Shown here: piece after piece, positions 1-51,673 of the stretch
Layout of the letters: each line of letters opens with the position of its first letter
How positions within the stretch are numbered: position 1 is the first letter of the stretch
Virus record (IMG/VR): IMGVR_UViG_3300028887_000075
Coordinates: 1-64,000 of that record
Length of the DNA: 64,000 nt
Reading direction: 5' to 3' (one strand)
DNA from: a virus
Lineage: Duplodnaviria; Caudoviricetes
Notes under the pieces: generated by a model
What the model saw: the letters and a program-made list of their open reading frames with translations, nothing else
The model's database searches: none
What the model was told of the DNA's origin: nothing
Translations under genes and position numbers: made by a program

Positions 1-387
1 GTTCGACCAGTGGCTCTTCATGTTCAGTACGCCGCTGGTCTTGTCGTAGCACATGGAGAGCCACTGGTCGAACAGGGTCTTCCTGAAGTTGTCCTTGCTG
101 TCGTAGAACGGTTTCTGCCTCTTCAGGTTGTACTTGTCGGCATACGAGTTCTGGTCCATGACCATCAGCGCCTGGTCCACATAAGGGCCGTAGAAGCCGA
201 CATGGTACTTGTTGACCACGTGGCCGCGGGCCATCGAGTAGAATTTCGGCATGTAGTAGTCGAGAAGTCCGACGTGCCCGGTACCCTGGGCCGCCTGGTA
301 GTCACGGCCCATCATGTCCTGGGACGTGGCGCCGGTACGCCAGTCGGCCTCATCCTGAATTACACCCTTTACGCTATTGGTGGCCAT
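1..387 (-). CDS. Partial CDS running off the window start; probable tail/baseplate protein
   Basis: Manual translation MATNSVKGVIQDEADWRTG... is open to position 1; starts 10 nt after the stop of the gp3-like gene; function inferred from context only. Confidence 0.6.
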   Translation of the reverse strand, partial: MATNSVKGVIQDEADWRTGATSQDMMGRDYQAAQGTGHVGLLDYYMPKFYSMARGHVVNKYHVGFYGPYVDQALMVMDQNSYADKYNLKRQKPFYDSKDNFRKTLFDQWLSMCYDKTSGVLNMKSHWSN

Positions 388-396
388 CTACTCGCC

Positions 397-1089
397 TCAC
401 TTGTCGTACGCGTTGGAACTGGTGCTTACGCATATGGCGCTCATCAGGCTGTTCGGGTCAGGTAGCCGGATAATCTCCTTGAGCTCGTATAGCACAGTCA
501 TGTTGAAGGGAACCGGGTCGACTGAACCTGGATTAGGCTGCAGGTCAGACAGTGCGGTTATGCGGCAGCGCTTGAACCGGACAATCATCCTCTCCTGTGA
601 GTTGTCGTCGGCACAGTGGATGTCGATGTACGGGATAAAGGTCAGCCTGTTCCTGTACCTGTGGTCTATTCCGTATATCCTGTGGTTCGGGTTCATTATG
701 GGATAGGCGTCGGTAAGGCCGCTCATCACGGTTTCCATGTACCTGTGCAGCCCCCACCAGTTTTCGTAACCCTGGTCGGCGAGCATCGTTATGGTAAGCG
801 GGTCGTCGTACTGGTTGTCTTCCTGGGTGGGTATCCTGGTACGGAACTTGTAGTGATATTCCTGTTCGAAGCTTTCCTTGAGCCCGTTGCAGATGTAGTT
901 CTTGATGAGCGCGTTAACCATCTCGGGAACCGGAGCCGTATGCGGTATTGGCGTATCGGTCGCGTCATGCGCCTCGTCGTGCCACGACACCGGGATAGGA
1001 CCGATTGTACAGCGCCAGAAGCCCTGATGCACTGGCGTCGGGGCGTGACGCATTATACGCACGGTTTCTCTTTCCGGGGCCAGTGCCAT
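397..1089 (-). CDS. T4 gp3-like tail tube terminator/completion protein
   Basis: YDDPLTITMLADQGYENWWGLHRYM and C-terminal VRFKRCRITALSDLQ...FNMTVLY resemble the T4 gp3/tail-tube fold family. Confidence 0.55.
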   Translation of the reverse strand: MALAPERETVRIMRHAPTPVHQGFWRCTIGPIPVSWHDEAHDATDTPIPHTAPVPEMVNALIKNYICNGLKESFEQEYHYKFRTRIPTQEDNQYDDPLTITMLADQGYENWWGLHRYMETVMSGLTDAYPIMNPNHRIYGIDHRYRNRLTFIPYIDIHCADDNSQERMIVRFKRCRITALSDLQPNPGSVDPVPFNMTVLYELKEIIRLPDPNSLMSAICVSTSSNAYDK

Positions 1090-1092
1090 CGG

Positions 1093-2025
1093 TTATCCCT
1101 TGATAGCGGTCGGGACCTTCTGCTTGCCCATGGCGGACTTCGGCTCGACGATACCGGTATGGTCGCCCTTGCCCGGCTTCGCAGCCTCGGACTTGATGAC
1201 GACGTTGTTCGGCGTAGCCTGGAGTTTCGTATCATAGGACTTGGCAATGACGGTCTTGGCTTCGCCAACCTCGTTCACCACAGTCTTGCCCTTGATGATT
1301 TCATCAGGAACCTTCTGCTTGCCCATGGCGGATTTCGGCTCGACGATGCCGGTATGGTCGCCCTTGCCCGGCTTTGCAGCCTCGGACGTCACCACGACAT
1401 TGTTCGGGGAGGCCTTTAGGGTCTCGTCGAAGGACTTGACTACCGTAGTAGCACCGCTCACGTCGGAGACTTCCGGCTTTTCCTTGATGATGTCGGTCGG
1501 GACCTTCTGCTTGCCCATGGCGGACTTCGGCTCGACGATGCCGGTATGGTCGCCCTTGCCCGGCTTCTGGGCCTTGGAGACCTCGACGAACTTGGCAACG
1601 CCGAGTTCCTCGACCGTGGTGTTGACCTTGCCCTCGATGGACTTCTCGGTAACCTTCTTCAGTGCCTTGAGTGAACTGGTGAGCTTCTCCGGCTTCGGCT
1701 GCTTGTCGAGCGTGTCGATGACGACGCTTCCGAAAGCGTCAATACCGGTAACCGGCTTGGCGGCCTTCTTTTCCTTGGCCTTCTCGGCCTTGAGGAAGTC
1801 CTCCCACACCTTGTCGATGCGGACCTCGCCCGGGTTGAAGTCGACCTTGTCCTTGACCACGCCGGTCTTGTCACCGAGCTTGACCGCAGCGGACTGCGGA
1901 CCCTTCGGCGTCCAGAACGGGAAGAAGGTCTCCTGGTCGATGTCGTTGCTGTTCTTCTTCGAGGATTCGAGCATAGCCTGGCCAAGGAGCTCGGATTCCG
2001 TCGGCAAATCGTACATATCAATCAT
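1093..2025 (-). CDS. Lys-rich repeat-containing putative virion protein (start reassigned to 2025)
   Basis: TATAAACT motif at 2057-2064 upstream; three KPGKGDHTGIVEPKSAMGKQKVP repeats; longer ORF overlaps the divergent gene. Confidence 0.7.
   Translation of the reverse strand: MIDMYDLPTESELLGQAMLESSKKNSNDIDQETFFPFWTPKGPQSAAVKLGDKTGVVKDKVDFNPGEVRIDKVWEDFLKAEKAKEKKAAKPVTGIDAFGSVVIDTLDKQPKPEKLTSSLKALKKVTEKSIEGKVNTTVEELGVAKFVEVSKAQKPGKGDHTGIVEPKSAMGKQKVPTDIIKEKPEVSDVSGATTVVKSFDETLKASPNNVVVTSEAAKPGKGDHTGIVEPKSAMGKQKVPDEIIKGKTVVNEVGEAKTVIAKSYDTKLQATPNNVVIKSEAAKPGKGDHTGIVEPKSAMGKQKVPTAIKG
1115..1566. repeat. Three ~65-bp intragenic direct repeats (1115-1179, 1310-1374, 1502-1566)
   Basis: ACCTTCTGCTTGCCCATGGCGGAYTTCGGCTCGACGATRCCGGTATGGTCGCCCTTGCCCGGCTT, spaced 195 and 192 nt (in frame). 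Confidence 0.9.
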
Positions 2026-2056
2026 GTTTGGTACCTGTAGATTGAAATTCTCTGGT

Positions 2057-2093
2057 AGTTTATATGCCCTCGACCCTATTCCCGGTATAAACT
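2057..2093. promoter_or_regulatory. Divergent pair of TATAAACT (putative late/phage-sigma) promoters
   Basis: AGTTTATA at 2057-2064 (minus) and TATAAACT at 2086-2093, 7 nt before ATG 2101. Confidence 0.7.
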
Positions 2094-2100
2094 CTATGGC

Positions 2101-3207
2101 ATGAAGGCCAGGAAGATTGCAGGAATCCGTCTCATCAACTACATCAACGACGGAATTACGTGGAAGTCCCACAAGGACGTTATACTTGACTTCTGGATTA
2201 TGAAGAAGTGCCACGAGTACGGATACACCCCGTACCAGTTCCGCAACATGTTCCATGTCGTCCAGCTCCCTACCGAGGCACAGCAGAAGTACGAGCAGTG
2301 GTTCAACTCCTACGACTTCCAGAACGAGACCGACAAGGACTGGCTCGAGTTCGTAAACGGTACGCTCAACCTGTTCTACCATACTGACAACCCGAAGCAG
2401 GAGGACGACGATTGCTGGTATCTCGACATGATGCAGTCCGAGGTTGAAGCCCGCAAGATTGTTAGCGAGCAGGTGTATCACGGAGAACCAAACCTAGATG
2501 CATTCTGGAAGATTTCTACACAGTCAAAGTCCGAGGAAGTCGGTGGTCGCCGTAACGGATATATCTACGTGTCCAAGCTCGGTGAGGTGAAGCCCAAGGA
2601 TACCGAGGGATACTACTGGGGCGTCGCCTTCCAGTGTCCCGAGACGGTAAGCCTCGGATTCAATGACAACGGTGTCAACCGCCGCAAGTGCATCGCGTGG
2701 GCGGCTAACGCCGAGCACATGACCCTCGTGCAGATTGGGGCGGACGGGAGGTTCCGGATTGTCCCGGTGTTCGTCGAGGGCAAGGCGTGGAAGGCCGACC
2801 GGTGGATACCGGAAGGCCAGGTTTCGCAGGCTCCCATGTCCTCCCAGGCGCTGCTCAAGTACATCACCGAGAAATTCCCGTCGCTCTACGGAGTATGGGA
2901 TACAATCGACGAGAAGGTAAAGCACGTCCGCGAGCAGTCCACCGCAAGGCTTACCGCGTTGAACACGATGAACGACGAAGAGGTCAAGGTCGGACGGGTA
3001 ATCGGCGACCTGGACAAGTTCGTCCGCGAGGGTAACGTATCCGACGAGCGCCGGGAATATAACAAGGAAGTCCGGAAGGCAGTCATGAAGAAGCTGCGCA
3101 TCCGCGAGAAGGAGGCCCGGAAGGTCGCGAGCGACATCGCCAAGGCCGAACGTCGGAAGGACAAGCGCAGCAGGTCGAAAATAAACCCGACTATCACACC
3201 TAATTAG
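2101..3207 (+). CDS. Hypothetical protein with basic coiled C-terminus
   Basis: 368-aa ORF with genome-typical codon usage and an upstream promoter motif. Confidence 0.75.
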   Translation: MKARKIAGIRLINYINDGITWKSHKDVILDFWIMKKCHEYGYTPYQFRNMFHVVQLPTEAQQKYEQWFNSYDFQNETDKDWLEFVNGTLNLFYHTDNPKQEDDDCWYLDMMQSEVEARKIVSEQVYHGEPNLDAFWKISTQSKSEEVGGRRNGYIYVSKLGEVKPKDTEGYYWGVAFQCPETVSLGFNDNGVNRRKCIAWAANAEHMTLVQIGADGRFRIVPVFVEGKAWKADRWIPEGQVSQAPMSSQALLKYITEKFPSLYGVWDTIDEKVKHVREQSTARLTALNTMNDEEVKVGRVIGDLDKFVREGNVSDERREYNKEVRKAVMKKLRIREKEARKVASDIAKAERRKDKRSRSKINPTITPN

Positions 3208-3216
3208 AGTATACCG

Positions 3217-4641
3217 ATGTCAGAGTTTGTAGACTACATAATGAACGAATTGCATAGTGGATATTCTCTGAAGAATGCCTTGGTTGAATCCTATGTCGCT
3301 TTGTTCGAGGACGTCGCCTCGACCGCCGCCCATAAGACCAAGAGGGTCATCCGGGAGCTGTTTCCTCAACTTTCCGAGAAGTGGGACTCCGTTGCAGTAG
3401 ACGATACCGGCCGACCTATCCTGACGATGACTGGGAAGAAGCAATCGTATATCGAATATTTCGAGAGGAACATCCGAAATAACTTCTTCCATGACGGCGA
3501 GAACCAGAAGTTCGAGCCCGGAGTGGCGAGAATCGCCTACGGCGAGCTGAACATGGAGAACCGGGGGGAGGATTCGAGGAAGCTTTCATCCCTGAAGAAA
3601 ATTGTAATGTTGATTTCGGACGGCCATGCGGAGGAATACGATTCCGACCTGAACGGGCTTTCCTATTCCGACCTGGAGGCCAGGTTCGGAACGGTCGTCC
3701 AGAAGGCCGATGACGAGCTCAAGAACGAATTGACTTCTACCAAATACAAGTCCAGCGACTATGTCATCGAACCGATACCCGATTTCAAGACGGCGAAGAA
3801 GTTCAGCAAGTATACCAATCCTGACTCCCGGTGGTGCATCACGCACATGAAAAACATGTGGGATAGCTACACTTCGGACGGTCTTAACAAGGTCTACTTC
3901 GCGTACAAGCCCAACTTCAAGGAAGTTAGTCGGATAACGGGGAAGAATGCCCCGCTCGACGAATACGGGCTTTCCCTGATTTCCATCATTGTCGACCCGT
4001 GGGAGAATCTCCGCGCAGTCACTACCAGGTGGAACCATGACAACGGCGGCTCGGACCAGGCGATGGACGCGCGTCAATTATCGAAACTGCTCGGCGGCAA
4101 CGTGTTCGGGCTCTGTCCGCCTCCTCCGAAACCGGAACAGCATATCGACCGGGTGGACGAGGATTCCGTACGAATCGGCGACCAGATTTGGATGTGCCAC
4201 AACCTCCAGATGCCCGCCAACCCGGAACACGGCATCTATGTTGTCGACGGGGAGACATACTTCACCTGGGAAGCTGCAATGCGGGTATCTAAGAAATACG
4301 GGAATGGCTGGAGACTCCCTGCCAAGGAGGACTGGAAAAAACTATCCGACTTCTGCGGTGGGGCATCCAAGGCCGGTTCTCACCTGAAGTCTACTTCCGG
4401 CTGGAACGGGGAGAACGGGTTCGACACCTATGGGTTCGCCGGGAAGCCTGCCGGGTTCTACTCTCCCGATGGCTCCAGGGTGTACCGCGTAGGCTACGGC
4501 GGTTACTTCTGGTCATCTGCGCCGGAAGGTGCTTCGGGCGCATACGGCTGTAACCTCGGCGGCAGCGGCAGCTACTTCCACGACTACTACTATGATAGGT
4601 ACGTCGGGTTGTCCGTTCGGTTGCTCAAGGATTCCGCTTAA
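3217..4641 (+). CDS. ALFE-leader family protein: conserved core plus C-terminal FISUMP (Fib_succ_major-like) domain; possible DGR target
   Basis: Core FEPGVARIAY/DEYGLS/RWNH shared with 26589 and 29361; C-terminal IGDQIWMCHNL...GWRLP...YFWSS...SVRLLKD. Confidence 0.8.
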   Translation: MSEFVDYIMNELHSGYSLKNALVESYVALFEDVASTAAHKTKRVIRELFPQLSEKWDSVAVDDTGRPILTMTGKKQSYIEYFERNIRNNFFHDGENQKFEPGVARIAYGELNMENRGEDSRKLSSLKKIVMLISDGHAEEYDSDLNGLSYSDLEARFGTVVQKADDELKNELTSTKYKSSDYVIEPIPDFKTAKKFSKYTNPDSRWCITHMKNMWDSYTSDGLNKVYFAYKPNFKEVSRITGKNAPLDEYGLSLISIIVDPWENLRAVTTRWNHDNGGSDQAMDARQLSKLLGGNVFGLCPPPPKPEQHIDRVDEDSVRIGDQIWMCHNLQMPANPEHGIYVVDGETYFTWEAAMRVSKKYGNGWRLPAKEDWKKLSDFCGGASKAGSHLKSTSGWNGENGFDTYGFAGKPAGFYSPDGSRVYRVGYGGYFWSSAPEGASGAYGCNLGGSGSYFHDYYYDRYVGLSVRLLKDSA

Positions 4642-4699
4642 CCGGGTTCCGATGCGCCCGCGGCAGGCGTAGCCCCGCGGTGGAAGGAACCCGTAATTT

Positions 4700-4730
4700 A
4701 AAGCCCGCCATATGGCGGGCTTCTTTGTTT
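4700..4730. terminator. Bidirectional intrinsic terminator
   Basis: AAGCCCGCCA-TA-TGGCGGGCTT followed by CTTTGTTT, between convergent genes. Confidence 0.8.
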
Positions 4731-5286
4731 AAAGTTCGTGGTCGAGGTCCTCCCCGGTATCTCCCGGTTCCTCCCCGCCTTCTCCTTCGCCGCCTTCGTC
4801 GAACTCGTCGTCGAGTCCGTCGAGGCCGAGGTCCTCGCTGCTCCCGGAGTCTTCCCCGAACAGGTCGTCGCCTTCCCCGCCATCTTCGGCGAACAGGTCG
4901 TCGTCGGCGAACAGGTCGTTGCCGAAGTCCTCGTCCGGGTCACTCCCGAAGCCGAGGTCGTCCTCGGTAGGCGCCAGGGAGTCACCGGGGATTGCCGTTC
5001 CGAAGTCCGACAGGTTTCCCTGGTCGATTCCGGTGTCGATTGCCTTGTCGAGCGCATCTTCCGGGTTCACGTTCTTCCCGTCGTCGTATCCGGCTCCGGC
5101 TGCGAGGTCGAACACGCCGTCTCCTTCGGTCTCCATCGGGTTCGTCCCGACCTTCTCCCGGAGGTTGTCGAGGGCCGCGGCGGTGCCGACACCCTCGAAA
5201 ATCTTGTGGTACAGGGATTCCACCCGCTTCCTGAGGAGGGGGTCGTACTCGGTGAGTTCCTTGGTGAATCTGAGAAGGGCGTTCAT
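4729..5286 (-). CDS. Highly acidic protein with YHKIFEG leader motif; putative head-internal/scaffold-like protein
   Basis: D/E/G-rich C-terminus; GATAAACT motif upstream at 5310-5317. Confidence 0.7.
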   Translation of the reverse strand: MNALLRFTKELTEYDPLLRKRVESLYHKIFEGVGTAAALDNLREKVGTNPMETEGDGVFDLAAGAGYDDGKNVNPEDALDKAIDTGIDQGNLSDFGTAIPGDSLAPTEDDLGFGSDPDEDFGNDLFADDDLFAEDGGEGDDLFGEDSGSSEDLGLDGLDDEFDEGGEGEGGEEPGDTGEDLDHEL

Positions 5287-15221: not shown

Positions 15222-16868
15222 ATGGCTGCTAAGGACGGGACGAAGGCCCTCGAGGACCTTCTGGTTAAGATTGAGATAGACAGCGACGACTGGGTGAAGA
15301 AGAGCGCCCGGGAGAAGCTGAAGATGCTGGTTGCGGAAGTCCGGATGAACTCCGAGAAGCTCGTGGGGGTGGCGGAGGACCTGGTTACGTCAATAGCCTC
15401 GATAGTGAGGGCGAATACCAGCAACCCCGCGGTCGACGCTTACCTGGGACTGCTGGAGACCGGCTTCGGGCTGATTAAGGCGAACACCGTGATGAACAAC
15501 GTGTTCGTATCTGCGAAGCATGAGGTGCACAACCAGTATGACGGGCTGGCAAAGTTCATGCGCATCGGCAGGGGAATCGACATGGTGGGCGACTCGATGG
15601 AGTCCACCTGCAGCATCTGCAAGGCGTTCATCTCCCTGACGCCGAAGGAACAGGCCAAGTACGGACTCCGTTTCCGCAAGGTGAGCGAGGAGGTGCCCGA
15701 GGACGACGACAAGAACGCTCCCCTCGTCACCATGATTGACACCGACTACACCTACAAGGGCGACACCTTCCGTATAGGCTTCGAGGTCAGCTACTACGAG
15801 CCCAAGAGGAAGGGCGACCGGCTCGGCGACGAGAGCAGCTACGCGTTCATCAACTTCGCCACCCCGATAGACCAGTTTGGCTTCGACGCGATGGAGTCCG
15901 TGCCCGCCATGATTTACGGGTGCTACATCGACCGGGTGGACATCAAGAAGAACATCATCAAGATTAAGAACGGGATACTCTATGTAGAACCCCGGGTGAA
16001 CATCGACTTCGACGTGAAGAACTTCGACCTGTACGACGATGACGGCAGGGTAATCAGGACGATGGAGACAGAGTCCGCCCTGATAAGGCGTATCCTGAAT
16101 GCCGGAGGCAGGCGTGGGTACATCGTGCAGGGCGACCAGGGCACCGGGAAGACCATCTCGGTCAACAAGATGCTAATGGGTTTCACCGACGTGCCTGTAT
16201 TCTGGATTTCCCCCGACTCGATTTCGAAGGCCGCCGGGATGGACAACGTGTTCCGTGTCCTCAACATGTTCCCGGGCAGCTTCTTCGTGTTCGACGACTT
16301 CGACGGGAACAACTTCTCGACCAAGAACGCTCTTACCGGCGCCTTCATCGACTACATCGACGAGACCAACTCCCCGCAGTACAGGGGAATCACGATACTC
16401 ATAATCAACGAGCCCCAGAAGCTCCACAGCACCATCAAGCTCCGCCCGGGCAGGATTGACGACATCATCTACGTCAGGAACCCGGGAGACGTTGCGCAGG
16501 TATGCGACGTCGTGGAGCAGACGTTCAGGCACCTGGGCCACGAGAAGCCCGACTGGGTCACCCCGGAGAACCCCGAGTTCGCCTCCGCGTGCGAGCCGGT
16601 ATTCGGCGCACACCTCACCCACGCATACATCGCCGGTGTCGTCACCGACATGGTCAAGTACTGCCCGGAGGACATTTCCGTCGGCAAGTTCCGGGAGCTC
16701 GTCTCCAGGAGGATTACGACCATAAAGTACGCCCGCATGGTGGCGATGGACGACGGCCACATCGTTGACGGAGGACCCCCGAAGGAGATTGTCCCGGAGG
16801 CAATAAACTCCGAATCCGACGACGAGGACATGGACGACATCTTCGATGACGGCGACCTTCCGATGTAA
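15222..16868 (+). CDS. AAA+ ATPase
   Basis: Walker A GDQGTGKT, Walker B FVFDDFD, arginine finger LRPGRIDD. Confidence 0.8.
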   Translation: MAAKDGTKALEDLLVKIEIDSDDWVKKSAREKLKMLVAEVRMNSEKLVGVAEDLVTSIASIVRANTSNPAVDAYLGLLETGFGLIKANTVMNNVFVSAKHEVHNQYDGLAKFMRIGRGIDMVGDSMESTCSICKAFISLTPKEQAKYGLRFRKVSEEVPEDDDKNAPLVTMIDTDYTYKGDTFRIGFEVSYYEPKRKGDRLGDESSYAFINFATPIDQFGFDAMESVPAMIYGCYIDRVDIKKNIIKIKNGILYVEPRVNIDFDVKNFDLYDDDGRVIRTMETESALIRRILNAGGRRGYIVQGDQGTGKTISVNKMLMGFTDVPVFWISPDSISKAAGMDNVFRVLNMFPGSFFVFDDFDGNNFSTKNALTGAFIDYIDETNSPQYRGITILIINEPQKLHSTIKLRPGRIDDIIYVRNPGDVAQVCDVVEQTFRHLGHEKPDWVTPENPEFASACEPVFGAHLTHAYIAGVVTDMVKYCPEDISVGKFRELVSRRITTIKYARMVAMDDGHIVDGGPPKEIVPEAINSESDDEDMDDIFDDGDLPM

Positions 16869-17023: not shown

Positions 17024-18712
17024 ATGCTGCTGCACGTTACCAAGAGAGACAAGAGACGCAGAAAGTTCGACCCCAAGCACATCTACGACGCCATAACGGC
17101 CGCATTCAAGGACAGCAAGGAGAAGTATACCGAGGAGGAACTCGACTCCCTAGTGAGCACCGTGATTGACACCGTATCCGCAAACGGCGCCAAGTCGGTA
17201 AATGTGGAAAAGATACAGGATACCATCGAGCGTACTCTGATGACATCAGGGTTCCTGGACACTGCTAAGGCGTTCATCACCTACCGTGCAGAGCGTACCC
17301 GTATCAGGGACCTGGACAACGACCTGAACCGCAGGGTAAGAGAAATCATCGATGCCAACCTGAAAACCAGTTCACTTCTCCGCGACAACGGCAATGTCAA
17401 TGGTGCACTGGTGGCATCGTCCATGGCGAAGGCCGGCGGCGAGACGATGAAGATGTATAACCTGCTGGGTAAGATAAAGCCGGAAATTGCCAGGGCACAC
17501 AAGAACGGCGATATCCATATTCATGACCTGGACTACTACTCTCTGACCATCAACTGCTTCTTTATCCCGCTGGCAGTACAGCTGGCTGAAGGGTTCGATA
17601 CCGGAAACGGCTGGGTGCGCCCGGCAAATTCCATAGAGACTGCATGCGCAATCGGAGCAATTTCCCTTCAGACCTCACAGAATGCCTTCTTTGGTGGGCA
17701 GGCGTTTGCCAACTTTGACTTTGACCTTGCCCCTTATGTGAACCGTAGTTTCCAGAAAAACCTGAAGCGTATGCTCAGGAACGCCATTGTGACCGCAGAG
17801 GCCATGGGTACTGGAAATCCGGCAGACCTCGAGGCACTCCGGAAAATTCGTGCAAAGTATGACCTTCGTATTATCAAGGATGTTTCCACGAAGGACCTGA
17901 AAGAATTCATCGTAGCCTACAAGGGTGAACTGGACGACTACGAATGTGGCCGAGAAGTACTCCCGGAGCTGCCCTACGATGAATTCGACCGTACCTACGT
18001 GATTGACCTGGGTGATGGCACCAAGTGGACCATGCCGGCATCCATGGTCGATGAAGCCGACATGCAGACCGTGAGAAACACGTTCCAGGGACTCGAGTCG
18101 TTCGTCCACAACGTGAATAGCCTTTTCTCCCGCTCCGGTAACCAGCTCCCGTTCAGTTCCGTGAACTTTGGCCTCGATACGTCAAAGAGTGGCCGTCTCG
18201 TGTCATTTGCGCTATTGCATGCGACCGAGGTGGGCATCGGGAACGGAGCCACTGCAATATTCCCTATTTCCATCTGTAAGGAAATGGCTGGCTATACCAT
18301 CAACCCGGAAGACCCCAACTATGATATCTGGGAAAAGTCGTGCGAGGTTCTGGCTGAACGCTTCTATCCGAACTTCGTAAACGTCGATGCCCCCTATAAC
18401 AAGGTATACGTGAAGTACGACGAGATGGAAACCGAGTTCAACCGGGAGAACCTGGTAGACAACCGGGGCCAGCGGCTGTACCGTGTTGCTCCCGGGAGGT
18501 TCTGGGAGTTCGTATCGGAGAAGGACGGTGTAGCCAAGCTGCGCAAGCTCCGTCCGGAAACCACTATATCCACGATGGGTTGTGCAAGGGGTGACTCTAG
18601 GATTACTGTCAAGATTGATGGTGTGGTTTACCGTAATATCACGATGGAAGCCGCGTTTGACTTGATAAAAGAGCTACGTACACAGAAAGACGCATCTGAA
18701 GAGGAGGTTTAA
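17024..18712 (+). CDS. nrdD: Anaerobic ribonucleoside-triphosphate reductase, N-terminal part plus 43-aa intein N-fragment
   Basis: ATP cone (VTKRD...FDPKHI), GDIHIHDLD, SRSGNQLPFSSVNFG; STMG followed by intein start CARGDSRI. Confidence 0.9.
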   Translation: MLLHVTKRDKRRRKFDPKHIYDAITAAFKDSKEKYTEEELDSLVSTVIDTVSANGAKSVNVEKIQDTIERTLMTSGFLDTAKAFITYRAERTRIRDLDNDLNRRVREIIDANLKTSSLLRDNGNVNGALVASSMAKAGGETMKMYNLLGKIKPEIARAHKNGDIHIHDLDYYSLTINCFFIPLAVQLAEGFDTGNGWVRPANSIETACAIGAISLQTSQNAFFGGQAFANFDFDLAPYVNRSFQKNLKRMLRNAIVTAEAMGTGNPADLEALRKIRAKYDLRIIKDVSTKDLKEFIVAYKGELDDYECGREVLPELPYDEFDRTYVIDLGDGTKWTMPASMVDEADMQTVRNTFQGLESFVHNVNSLFSRSGNQLPFSSVNFGLDTSKSGRLVSFALLHATEVGIGNGATAIFPISICKEMAGYTINPEDPNYDIWEKSCEVLAERFYPNFVNVDAPYNKVYVKYDEMETEFNRENLVDNRGQRLYRVAPGRFWEFVSEKDGVAKLRKLRPETTISTMGCARGDSRITVKIDGVVYRNITMEAAFDLIKELRTQKDASEEEV

Positions 18713-19555
18713 TTTATGATTGGTGTTTACAAGATTCTTCATATTCCAACTGGCAAGTACTACATTGGTTCTAGTTCCAACATTAGTCGACGTATGGCCG
18801 AACATCGGTATAAGTTGAGTCATAATGGAAAGTTTGATTGTGGCTGGATTGTTACTGATACTGATATTGCCAACTATGAGTTTTCTGTAGAATGCGAATG
18901 TACACTAGATGAACTCCATTACAGGGAAACTGAGTTAATCAAGAGCGCTGACCCGGTGCTGTGCGTGAATATCAAGGCTGATGACCAGAAGACCAACCGT
19001 ACGCCGAACCATATGTGTGGCAAGCACTGGTATAACAATGGAACTGAATGCATGTGTTTCTACGAAGGTTCAGAACCTGAAGGCTGGGTGCGTGGTAGGA
19101 TTACTGGTATTGCCGGGTTTGACTTGAACGACCATCGTAATAATGTCAACGGCACGCCGGCTCACGAGAAACATTTGGATAAGTTACATGGTGGCGTGTC
19201 TGAATATATTGAGACCGACGATATGGATATTCAAATATTGAGCAATAACGAGTTTGTTCCTATGCTTGGTATTTTGCGGAATAGTGCCGGCGCATCAAAT
19301 CCATTGTGCGAAGTTCGATATAGGTATAAGGGTAAGGTAACTCGTGTACTTAATGTGACGACAGACCATCCTTTAGTAACTAAGCGTGGCCGTGTGAAGG
19401 TAGAAGACCTTCAAGTGGGTGATTTACTTATTGATAGTGTTGATGGTGATGAATATCCGGTAACAGAGATTGAACCAATTAGCCATCGGTCGCCTACATA
19501 TGATGTGGAGACTGACAATGACGTGTTTGATTTGGATGGTATACTCTCGCATAAC
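18581..19555 (+). mobile_element. Split intein with GIY-YIG homing endonuclease at the NrdD catalytic Cys
   Basis: Cys1 at 18581; TAA 18710-18712; GVY..YYIG; block B TTDHP; block F/G TYDVETDNDVFDLDGILSHN|C; more AT-rich than flanks. Confidence 0.85.
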
Positions 19556-20554
19556 TGCCGGACCCGGAGCATAGGCAATGTAAACGGCGAATCTGTGACT
19601 ACCGGCAAGGGTAATCTATGGTTCACTACCATCAACTTGCCCGCTATTGCGGTTCGCGCCACCAAGACAGCCAACCCAATTGAGTCATTCTGGAAGGAAT
19701 TGGACGAGAAGATGGCGATGTGCCGCGAATGCATGGAGGAAAGGTACAAGACTATCAAGAACCGTACCTATGCGAACCTATATTTCCCGATGAAGAACGG
19801 TCTGTACATGGGGTCGGACAAGAACGCCCCGGTGACTACCACGATTGAGAAGGCAATCAAGAACGGGTCTAACGCAATCGGCTATATCGGCATATATGAA
19901 GTCTGCCTTACGTTGCTTGGCAAGGTATTCGGCGTAGACGAGGAGGCGACCAAGTTCGGGTACGAGATTGTCAAGCATATCCGCGAGTACACTGATGCCG
20001 TCCAGAAGGAAACCCACATGAACTGGACAACGTTCGCTACACCGGCAGAGAACGTATGCGGCCGGTTTGCCCAGATTGATGCCAAACGGTTTGGCTCGGA
20101 TGATAAGCTGAATGTACCGGGAGACCAGATTTGGGGCAAGGGATACTACACCAACTCGCACATGATGCCTTTCGATGTCAAGACTACGCTTGCACATAAG
20201 CTGGAAGTAGAGGCACCATTCCATGAACTGACGAATGGTGGCCACATATTCTACTACAAGATTGATGGCGACCCGTCCAAGAACGTGGATGCCGTCAAGG
20301 CGGCAGTCAGGGCTATGTACGATGCCGGTATCGGCTACGGAACAATCACGTTCTCGCAGGATACCTGCAGGGAATGCGGATACCGTGGTATAATTGACAA
20401 TGAATGTCCTCACTGCCATTGCAAGGACAATGGGGAAAACGTGCTCCGTATCCGGAGAATCACTGGATATTTGGTGGGACGTTCTTCGCAGTCAATCGAG
20501 GAGTCCTGGGGTGACGGAAAGCTGGCCGAGCTCAAACATAGGGTGAACATCTAA
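18716..20554 (+). CDS. nrdD: GIY-YIG endonuclease / intein C-fragment / NrdD C-terminal part fusion
   Basis: GAGGAGG SD 8 nt before ATG; SHN|CRTR junction; GNLWFTTINLP, ATPAENVCGRF, CxxC-CxxC, glycyl radical motif RRITGYL. Confidence 0.9.
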   Translation: MIGVYKILHIPTGKYYIGSSSNISRRMAEHRYKLSHNGKFDCGWIVTDTDIANYEFSVECECTLDELHYRETELIKSADPVLCVNIKADDQKTNRTPNHMCGKHWYNNGTECMCFYEGSEPEGWVRGRITGIAGFDLNDHRNNVNGTPAHEKHLDKLHGGVSEYIETDDMDIQILSNNEFVPMLGILRNSAGASNPLCEVRYRYKGKVTRVLNVTTDHPLVTKRGRVKVEDLQVGDLLIDSVDGDEYPVTEIEPISHRSPTYDVETDNDVFDLDGILSHNCRTRSIGNVNGESVTTGKGNLWFTTINLPAIAVRATKTANPIESFWKELDEKMAMCRECMEERYKTIKNRTYANLYFPMKNGLYMGSDKNAPVTTTIEKAIKNGSNAIGYIGIYEVCLTLLGKVFGVDEEATKFGYEIVKHIREYTDAVQKETHMNWTTFATPAENVCGRFAQIDAKRFGSDDKLNVPGDQIWGKGYYTNSHMMPFDVKTTLAHKLEVEAPFHELTNGGHIFYYKIDGDPSKNVDAVKAAVRAMYDAGIGYGTITFSQDTCRECGYRGIIDNECPHCHCKDNGENVLRIRRITGYLVGRSSQSIEESWGDGKLAELKHRVNI

Positions 20555-20586: not shown

Positions 20587-21096
20587 ATGAACTATTCGAA
20601 CATTGAAATGAATTCTACTGTTGATGGGCCGGGTATACGGGTATCCCTCTTCGTTTCCGGTTGCCGCAACCACTGTCCCGGTTGCTTCAACGAGGCCACC
20701 TGGGATTTCAACTACGGCAAGCCGTTCACTGCGATAGAGGCGAACGAGATTATCGAGGGATGCCGGCCGGACTACATTGACGGCTGCACCATACTTGGGG
20801 GTGAACCCCTGGAGCCAGAGAACCAGGAGGCTCTCCTCCCGTTCCTCCGCCGGTTCAAGCAGGTACATCCCGGTAAAACCCTGTGGATGTTCACGGGTTA
20901 TATCTTGGACCGAGACTTGCTCCCGGGGCAAAGAAAGAATGTCCCGGGGGTCACCCGGGACATTCTCGGTCTCCTCGATGTACTTGTCGACGGCCCCTTC
21001 ATCCTTGCCGAGCGCGACCTCACGTTGAAGTTCCGGGGCAGCAGGAACCAGCGCATCCTCCGTAAGGAGGACATCGCTAGGCTTGCCGAATCATAG
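20587..21096 (+). CDS. nrdG: Anaerobic RNR activating enzyme (radical SAM)
   Basis: DGPGIRVSLFVSGCRNHCPGCFN, LGGEPL, DVLVDGPF, FRGSRNQR. Confidence 0.95.
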   Translation: MNYSNIEMNSTVDGPGIRVSLFVSGCRNHCPGCFNEATWDFNYGKPFTAIEANEIIEGCRPDYIDGCTILGGEPLEPENQEALLPFLRRFKQVHPGKTLWMFTGYILDRDLLPGQRKNVPGVTRDILGLLDVLVDGPFILAERDLTLKFRGSRNQRILRKEDIARLAES

Positions 21097-51600: not shown

Positions 51601-51673
51601 GCGGGAGTAGTTCAGTAGGTAGAACGCGACCTTCCCAAGGTCGAAGTCGAGGGTTCGAGACCCTTTTCCCGCT
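51601..51673 (+). tRNA. tRNA-Gly (anticodon CCC), CCA not encoded
   Basis: Acceptor GCGGGAG/TTCCCGC; D arm GTTC..GAAC; anticodon arm CGACC-TTCCCAA-GGTCG; T loop TTCGAGA. Confidence 0.93.

Follow-up and report, generated by a model that had tools for sequence, protein, structure and literature searches.

A predicted atypically split intein with a GIY-YIG nuclease fused to its C-terminal fragment in the nrdD gene of a probable jumbo phage

The DNA analysed in this study (64,000 nucleotides, hereafter the window) is the first 64 kb of the 170,734-bp IMG/VR virus record IMGVR_UViG_3300028887_000075, whose CheckV completeness of 41% at this length indicates that the source is probably a jumbo phage. 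Analysis of its nrdD gene, which encodes the class III ribonucleotide reductase (RNR) NrdD, revealed an insert between Met-Gly and Cys (the MG/C site) that is very probably a naturally and atypically split class-1 intein with a GIY-YIG homing nuclease fused to its C-terminal fragment (IntC). This assignment is supported by the anatomy of the locus, the conservation of the split, the predicted fold, the intact catalytic residues of both intein and nuclease, and signs of mobility. The combination of a split intein with a homing nuclease is already known; what is new here is a conserved half-fused intermediate. Judged by the sequences compared, the locus appears to be a long-lived half-fused stage between a fractured gene and a contiguous nuclease-bearing intein, because mini-inteins, contiguous GIY-YIG inteins and fractured genes all occur at the same NrdD site. 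The half-fused state seems to have persisted in relatives that are 30-62% identical in protein.

The insert divides nrdD into two open reading frames (ORFs). ORF1 (17024-18712, 562 amino acids) consists of NrdD residues ending in ...TISTMG, followed by the N-terminal intein fragment (IntN) from Cys1 (18581) to Val43 (18709) and then TAA. ORF2 (18716-20554, 612 amino acids) has its ATG 3 nt past the ORF1 stop, with the sequence GAGGAGG 8 nt 5' of this ATG at 18716, and both ORFs share one frame (GTT TAA TTT ATG). The last residue of the intein is Asn280 of ORF2 (...GILSHN) and Cys281, encoded by codon 19556-19558, is the Cys+1 of CRTR. The nuclease ORF has its own ribosome-binding site and start, lacks a stop of its own and runs into IntC and the C-terminal half of NrdD; therefore it is translated as one chain with both. 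The whole insert measures 975 bp (18581-19555), and its GC content, 0.37-0.45, is lower than that of nrdD on either side (about 0.52). All the sequence features named in the initial annotation (the STMG/C break, 43 residues, TAA, GAGGAGG, TTDHP, SHN and CRTR) were found where it had placed them.

A HMMER search with residues 1-280 of ORF2 as query returned 324 relatives, and 21 of these were aligned. The amino acids T-D-H-P of block B, Y-D ... D-x-F of block F and S-H-N-C of block G and the +1 position are invariant in the alignment. The nucleophiles of the window intein are cysteines, at intein residue 1 (18581) and at +1 (19556), and Cys1 is present in each split relative with a readable upstream ORF (L004/L005, L006, L007 and L122). 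The read-through translation, with Q in place of TAA, was modelled by AlphaFold2 on the alignment of 21 relatives; the model reached a mean predicted local distance difference test score (pLDDT) of 84, with 96-97 across the first 30 residues, which belong to IntN, and with low confidence confined to two linkers. Comparison of this model with the PDB by Foldseek gave matches to NrdJ-1 (9e-8), gp41-1 (1.6e-7), Aes123 PolB1, RecA and VidaL, and almost all of the top 50 matches were inteins or bacterial intein-like (BIL) domains. The model thus supports the prediction that the read-through product folds as a HINT domain. About 32 of the 43 amino acids of IntN are structured and block B is located in ORF2, so the break is N-terminal of block B, in agreement with the initial annotation, which had called the break atypically early. 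A blastn search of the locus against 50,697 phage records found no match.

Association of the two fragments was also assessed by complex prediction, in which IntN with 15 extein residues was paired with IntC with 20 extein residues, each given as an alignment, alongside three controls. The IntN/IntC pair scored 0.85 against 0.02 for the best of the three controls. Among solved complexes 58 of 80 attained that mark, as did two of 110 mismatched pairs; these counts are only rough, as own alignments were used. The runs shared at least 79% of contacts and the partner pLDDT was at least 78. IntN and IntC are therefore predicted to associate, which lends computational backing to the earlier proposal that trans-splicing is needed to build the enzyme.

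The host protein is continuous across the insert, since the Pfam NRDD profile is covered at positions 2-252 by ORF1 and at 259-560 by ORF2. An alignment of the C-extein with the solved NrdD of Prevotella copri (PDB 8p23; E 2e-56) begins at the first C-extein residue, which is matched to chain residue 420. Chain residue 420 corresponds to Cys416 because the numbering is offset by four, the glycine of RITGY being chain residue 715 and Gly711 in the paper. Cys416 of the Prevotella enzyme is the radical-initiator cysteine, at the tip of a loop through the barrel (PMC11226230). By this alignment the intein would borrow the key catalytic cysteine of NrdD as its +1 nucleophile, as had been anticipated when Cys+1 was named as the catalytic cysteine of class III RNR.

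A decayed intein that no longer splices is an unlikely explanation; NrdD would then be inactive, or its halves would work together without a covalent link, like those of the fractured nrdA of phage Aeh1, which has no intein. Fractured RNR genes that work without splicing are documented (cited in PMC2677866; see also PMC3045599), but Cys1, T-x-x-H, His-Asn and Cys+1 of the split intein are all kept across 30-62% divergence. Furthermore, the break lies in the radical-initiator cysteine loop deep in the barrel, where 43 and 280 extra residues would be hard to fit, and the nrdG activase is retained.

The initial annotation had itself cautioned that read-through or a single-base error would give a contiguous intein. 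An error of sequencing or assembly at the TAA, or read-through of this codon, which would make the element a contiguous bifunctional GIY-YIG intein like P0004-P0015, is very unlikely. Such contiguous inteins do exist at the same NrdD site, and the two ORFs of the window are in the same frame, parted by TAA TTT. Gene tables, however, list the exact 612-amino-acid protein on seven contigs from separate samples and assemblers, with the 562-amino-acid gene ending 3 nt upstream each time. The junction GAGGAGGTTTAATTTATG (TAA-TTT-ATG) is identical in L122, which shares 81.6% DNA identity over nrdD and differs in the neighbouring codons. A strong Shine-Dalgarno sequence and the ATG are conserved directly past the stop, and the neighbouring gene also ends in TAA (16866-16868). 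In more diverged relatives the ORFs are frame-shifted or overlapping: L004 and L005 (62% amino acid identity) have TAA and a 2-nt spacer with the other ORF in another frame, the gene table of the P0002 contig (55-57%) shows an overlap of 1 nt, L006 (47%) has a 17-nt ORF overlap, and L007 (30-35%, TGA=W) has a 1-nt overlap, TAATG. Read-through cannot give a contiguous intein in these arrangements; therefore the family is genuinely split, and the earlier caveat is answered.

The other features of the break are conserved as well. More distant split relatives have a protein that starts with MIG[IV]YKI, preceded by a gene whose last 39-42 residues are an IntN with Cys in first position; in all split relatives with a readable upstream ORF the IntN measures 39-43 amino acids. 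A GGAGG-type Shine-Dalgarno sequence occurs at the same place, in the IntN tail, in L004, L006, L007 and L122, and the acidic IntN tails (...EEEV, ...MEDA, ...MEAE) are explained by this position. Recurring as it does in independent, diverged sequences, the split architecture is far beyond chance. The claim of a split intein thus stands, on the conserved break and on the HINT-fold model. Removal of the insert as RNA, by a group I intron with a GIY-YIG ORF, is extremely unlikely even with a mobile group I intron in T4 nrdD (PMC1865063) and with nrdD introns common in gut jumbo phages (PMC12880540), since the insert carries all intein blocks, folds as HINT in the model and lies in frame with both exteins, and no Rfam match to a group I ribozyme core was found in the window at the gathering threshold or in 18300-19800 at E<=1.

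Two of the relatives deserve description in their own right. The L007 locus (1250-5229), with the same split and the TAATG overlap, gives a correct translation only if TGA is read as W, so that the element is also present in a recoded phage or in one whose host uses code 4. In L006 (266-5842 of a 107-kb contig) nrdD occupies at least four genes, in the order of a 647-amino-acid N-part, a 271-amino-acid piece ending in IntN, an 884-amino-acid GIY-YIG-IntC piece and a 50-amino-acid NRDD tail gene, and the 884-amino-acid piece holds a second, contiguous intein with HNH_3 and NUMOD3 matches.

Analysis of ORF2 confirmed that a nuclease is fused to the C-fragment, and the fusion is conserved in relatives. 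The GIY-YIG domain scored 26.5 bits against the Pfam cut-off of 22.6, and a profile of eleven family members matched the catalytic domain of I-TevI (1mk0) at E 2e-4, with the GIY/YIG tyrosines, Arg, His and Glu aligned. The residues Y5, Y16, R26, H30, E71 and N85 are invariant in the family. The initial annotation had described a nuclease of about 160 amino acids; a GIY-YIG module is indeed present, and the region really consists of a catalytic domain of about 95 amino acids, a shared module of about 27 amino acids and a flexible linker. The module (amino acids 102-128) is modelled as a beta-hairpin, and among split relatives G102, K103, W105, G109, P121, G123, G127 and R128 are invariant. It matches the C-terminal part of phrog_10820 'HNH endonuclease', is absent from the contiguous relatives and is covered by none of the Pfam models. 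The hairpin module is probably DNA-binding, and a disordered linker of about 30 residues connects the nuclease to IntC. In free-standing GIY-YIG and HNH nucleases (P0016, P0017 and many others) the same module, GK.W[YC].NG ... PEGW.RGR, occurs in up to eight tandem copies; it looks like an undescribed NUMOD-like DNA-binding repeat.

Within the HINT domain the nuclease comes behind the first hairpin and helix, before the strand starting DIQILS and well ahead of block B. In canonical inteins the nuclease is found after block B, which is also where natural split inteins usually break (PMC11923092). Two members of the same NrdD-site family, P0058 and P0064, carry a LAGLIDADG nuclease at the canonical site, while the GIY-YIG nuclease precedes block B, which argues that the GIY-YIG domain uses a second, N-proximal insertion site. 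The break of the window intein lies at the upstream edge of this site.

The following sequence of events would account for the locus. One mRNA would cover both ORFs, with neither a terminator nor an intron between them. Two polypeptides would be made: the N-terminal half of NrdD with the 43-amino-acid IntN, and a chain of GIY-YIG nuclease, linker, IntC and the C-terminal half of NrdD. The hairpin and helix of IntN would dock on IntC and complete the HINT fold. Cys1 would then form a thioester, the N-extein would be passed to Cys+1, and Asn280 would cyclise. The predicted products are an 851-amino-acid NrdD with the joined sequence STMG-CRTR and a non-covalent complex of IntN with nuclease-IntC. 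This complex would be the homing enzyme, cutting intein-less nrdD of co-infecting phages and so spreading the element. Splicing, nuclease activity and the nuclease target are the parts of this scheme that we infer. No terminator was found between the ORFs, and a promoter and terminator scan gave no more sites than shuffled sequence. No RNA hairpin was found over the ribosome-binding site of ORF2 (z = +2.0).

Several observations weigh against a spliced, homing split intein. All Pfam HINT and Intein_splicing models score below cut-off, so the identity of the intein rests on motifs, alignment and predicted fold. Complexes of split inteins have been solved and are in the PDB, and the pass in complex prediction may reflect likeness to them and not binding by this copy. 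The ORFs of the window are in frame, so that a minor read-through product is possible. The DNA-binding part of the nuclease is short compared with that of I-TevI. The element is present once in the 170-kb record; neither a second copy of the nuclease nor any other GIY-YIG domain was found there, and the record therefore gives no evidence of a resident family of free-standing copies.

The arrangement is less of an exception than the initial annotation suggested. The split with a fused nuclease holds, but contiguous and fully fractured forms belong to the same family at the NrdD MG/C site. P0012 (Cys1) and P0025 and P0035 (Ala1) are examples of mini-inteins, which have about 165 residues and no nuclease. 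In the contiguous inteins of P0004-P0015 and of the IMG/VR loci L092, L094 and L096, a homologous GIY-YIG domain is inserted precisely where it is in the window, without the hairpin module; most of these inteins start with Ala, one with Ser and P0032 with Cys. The classical fractured form was found in L119 and L121, where a free-standing gene of about 300 amino acids (phrog_3339 'homing endonuclease') separates NrdD-N with IntN from IntC with NrdD-C. In L120, an IntN with Ser1 and a free-standing GIY-YIG gene are followed by a shortened GIY-YIG remnant fused to IntC, as if a second nuclease had invaded an element that was half-fused before. A free-standing nuclease gene thus lies between the intein halves in L119, L121 and L120, and none does in the window. 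Scanning IMG/VR with IntC patterns recovered about twenty contiguous inteins at the NrdD MG/C site, together with matches in other proteins, and no further split copy; a scan with GIY-YIG motif patterns was uninformative, as it returned just generic free-standing GIY-YIG genes.

The fractured relatives show additional features. L119 (1372-4395) and L121 (1282-5447) have the same early break and a nuclease-less IntC, and their gene of about 300 amino acids is not GIY-YIG and has a weak PvuRts1I-like match; in L121 a further GIY-YIG gene splits nrdD downstream. The free-standing GIY-YIG gene of L120 (locus 232-4815) encodes 359 amino acids with a Cys-rich repeated C-terminus, and the fused remnant is probably inactive. 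Most contiguous inteins at the NrdD site (P0004-P0014, P0025, P0035; L089-L094, L096) begin with Ala (MG followed by A[AVT]RGDE...) and a few with Ser, and in the Ala1 and Ser1 contiguous inteins Cys+1 is retained and block F is class-1-like, the class-3 position being occupied by Asp and not by Cys. By analogy, the Ala1 pattern resembles class 2 inteins such as Mja KlbA, in which the +1 Cys attacks the N-junction directly. Split forms with a readable IntN have Cys1, except L120 (Ser1).

A quick tree was built on the last 112 intein residues, with an arbitrary root and with two mis-trimmed LAGLIDADG rows disregarded. The window groups with P0001 and P0002 (95 by the Shimodaira-Hasegawa-like approximate likelihood ratio test, SH-aLRT), and the contiguous Ala1 inteins form one clade (99 SH-aLRT) with mini-inteins nested within it and the split forms outside. 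As the deep branches are weak and the root is arbitrary, no order of events is drawn from the tree. In the same phage pairs the element is conserved above the C-extein (62/55/47% vs 53/39/35%); this and the dip in GC content may be taken as signs of mobility.

The closest known arrangement is the phage 'fractured gene' described by Dassa et al. in 2009, in which the halves of a split intein flank a free-standing gene for a GIY-YIG or Vsr-like nuclease (PMC2677866). Overlaps of 6-69 bp between this gene and the downstream part of the intein are frequent, and one exception has a different break point (PMC2677866). As in fractured genes, a phage enzyme for DNA precursors is broken here by a split intein with all parts in one operon, and a GIY-YIG nuclease gene at the break supplies the upstream stop and its own translation signals. 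Unlike fractured genes, where the nuclease gene is separate and the break falls at the usual nuclease site, the window has a nuclease fused in frame to IntC without a stop and a break near the N-end of the intein. Attenuator hairpins have been described in fractured genes, whereas the ribosome-binding site in the window is unstructured, and NrdD is not among the eight host enzymes of fractured genes (PMC2677866). The same paper proposed, as step IIIa, that loss of the flanks of the nuclease gene could place the nuclease in frame inside the intein, and stated that GIY-YIG was not known within inteins (PMC2677866). In these terms the window is step IIIa half done, with the downstream flank gone and the upstream stop and start kept.

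The genes in which natural inteins with an atypical split are known comprise terL, a T4 Lh-like gene, uvsX and polB, and the IntN of these inteins measures 15-37 amino acids (PMC11766414, PMC10189870). Reported lengths are 25 amino acids in AceL-TerL, 37 in GOS-TerL, about 16 in VidaL and 15 in PolB16 OarG (PMC11766414, PMC10189870, PMC11923092). The window intein is like these in its short IntN, its long IntC with block B and its phage or metagenome origin, and its Cys1 and Cys+1 are as in AceL-TerL. It differs from AceL-TerL, GOS-TerL, VidaL and OarG in its host protein, in the 43 amino acids of its IntN and in the nuclease module of 160 amino acids at the N-terminus of IntC. Judging from the lengths and the model, a break after the first hairpin and helix would be the same structural site as in the TerL inteins. 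No TerL intein occurs among the PDB sequence matches, of which the NrdJ-1 intein is the best (E 0.045), and no direct comparison was made. The window intein is accordingly filed as the same kind as the TerL atypically split inteins and not as the same family. In the literature on natural atypically split inteins (PMC11766414, PMC10189870, PMC11923092) neither an NrdD case nor a fused nuclease is described, and within the literature searched no report of an NrdD intein or of a GIY-YIG intein was found. Of 104 gut jumbo phage genomes, 95 have an nrdD broken up by introns, endonucleases and 'Intein_splicing' proteins, and this architecture was not dissected there (PMC12880540).

Among nucleases, I-TevI of phage T4 (PDB 1mk0, 1ln0) is the closest solved relative of the catalytic domain in the window. 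In the intron-encoded I-TevI the catalytic domain is accompanied by a long linker, a zinc finger and a helix-turn-helix, whereas the nuclease of the window has one short hairpin module followed by a HINT domain. PI-SceI is a contiguous bifunctional intein with a LAGLIDADG nuclease between two HINT lobes. Like PI-SceI, the element in the window is predicted to join protein splicing and homing in one selfish element, with the nuclease made stoichiometrically with the host protein. It is unlike PI-SceI in having a GIY-YIG and not a LAGLIDADG or HNH nuclease, in the insertion of this nuclease after the first helix and not after block B, and in a chain broken before the nuclease.

These results bear on how inteins gain nuclease domains and on how split inteins arise: one flank has been lost and the other kept, stably over deep divergence, and relatives show stages before and after. 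They also point to GIY-YIG nucleases as a third nuclease type that can reside inside inteins, away from the canonical site. A wider reading is plausible, though we stop short of favouring it: that the NrdD MG/C family preserves every stage of a nuclease becoming an intein domain (mini-intein, split intein with free-standing nuclease, split intein with nuclease fused to IntC, contiguous GIY-YIG intein), that the half-fused state is a selected, functional two-chain splicing-and-homing enzyme, and that GIY-YIG is a genuine third type of intein nuclease whose non-canonical insertion point explains the origin of 'atypical' split sites. Natural atypically split inteins are few; as their short piece is accessible to chemical synthesis, they are prized in protein labelling and semisynthesis. 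The locus adds an example with short IntN, Cys1 and Cys+1 from a new host protein, with several diverged orthologues, and is a possible ligation tool. Annotation of large phages can easily mistake such loci for broken nrdD genes.

Table 1. Positions of the nrdD parts, the intein-nuclease element and the downstream activase gene in the window.
Feature	Position	Strand	Description and basis
nrdD N-extein	17024..18580	+	519 amino acids; ATP-cone and first barrel part, ends ...STMG; Pfam ATP-cone 1.7e-20, NRDD 1.6e-65 (profile 2-252)
IntN, 43 intein residues	18581..18709	+	Cys1, block A, beta-hairpin, first helix, acidic tail overlapping the Shine-Dalgarno sequence; aligns with N-termini of relatives' inteins
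Shine-Dalgarno sequence GAGGAGG of ORF2	18701..18707	+	Within IntN tail; read from sequence
TAA stop splitting the intein	18710..18712	+	Kept in L122 and in gene calls of 7 contigs
ORF2 ATG and GIY-YIG catalytic domain (about amino acids 1-95)	18716..19000	+	Pfam GIY-YIG 26.5 bits, cut-off 22.6
Small beta-hairpin module GKHWYNNG...PEGWVRGR (amino acids 102-128), probably DNA-binding	19019..19099	+	Conservation, model, recurrence in free-standing nucleases
Flexible linker from nuclease to IntC	19100..19192	+	pLDDT <50 at model residues 176-190; poorly conserved
IntC, remaining ~120 HINT residues	19193..19555	+	Block B (TTDHP), block F (TYDVETDNDVFDL), block G (GILSHN)
nrdD C-extein	19556..20554	+	332 amino acids and stop; Cys+1 of CRTR first; Zn ribbon; RITGY glycyl-radical motif; Pfam NRDD 259-560
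nrdG activase (radical-SAM), downstream	20587..21096	+	Pfam Fer4_12 6.4e-45

The N-extein is longer than the NRDD profile. Nothing in the profile corresponds to amino acids 465-519 of ORF1 (18416-18580), the roughly 55 residues that separate NRDD profile position 252 from the splice site; a similar stretch occurs in L004, and it looks like a lineage-specific insertion just before the radical-cysteine loop. Amino acids 122-464 of ORF1 span only 251 NRDD profile positions, so about 90 amino acids of extra sequence are present there too. Elsewhere in the window, a single tRNA gene at 51601-51673 (Rfam tRNA, 62.9 bits) was the only Rfam match at the gathering threshold.

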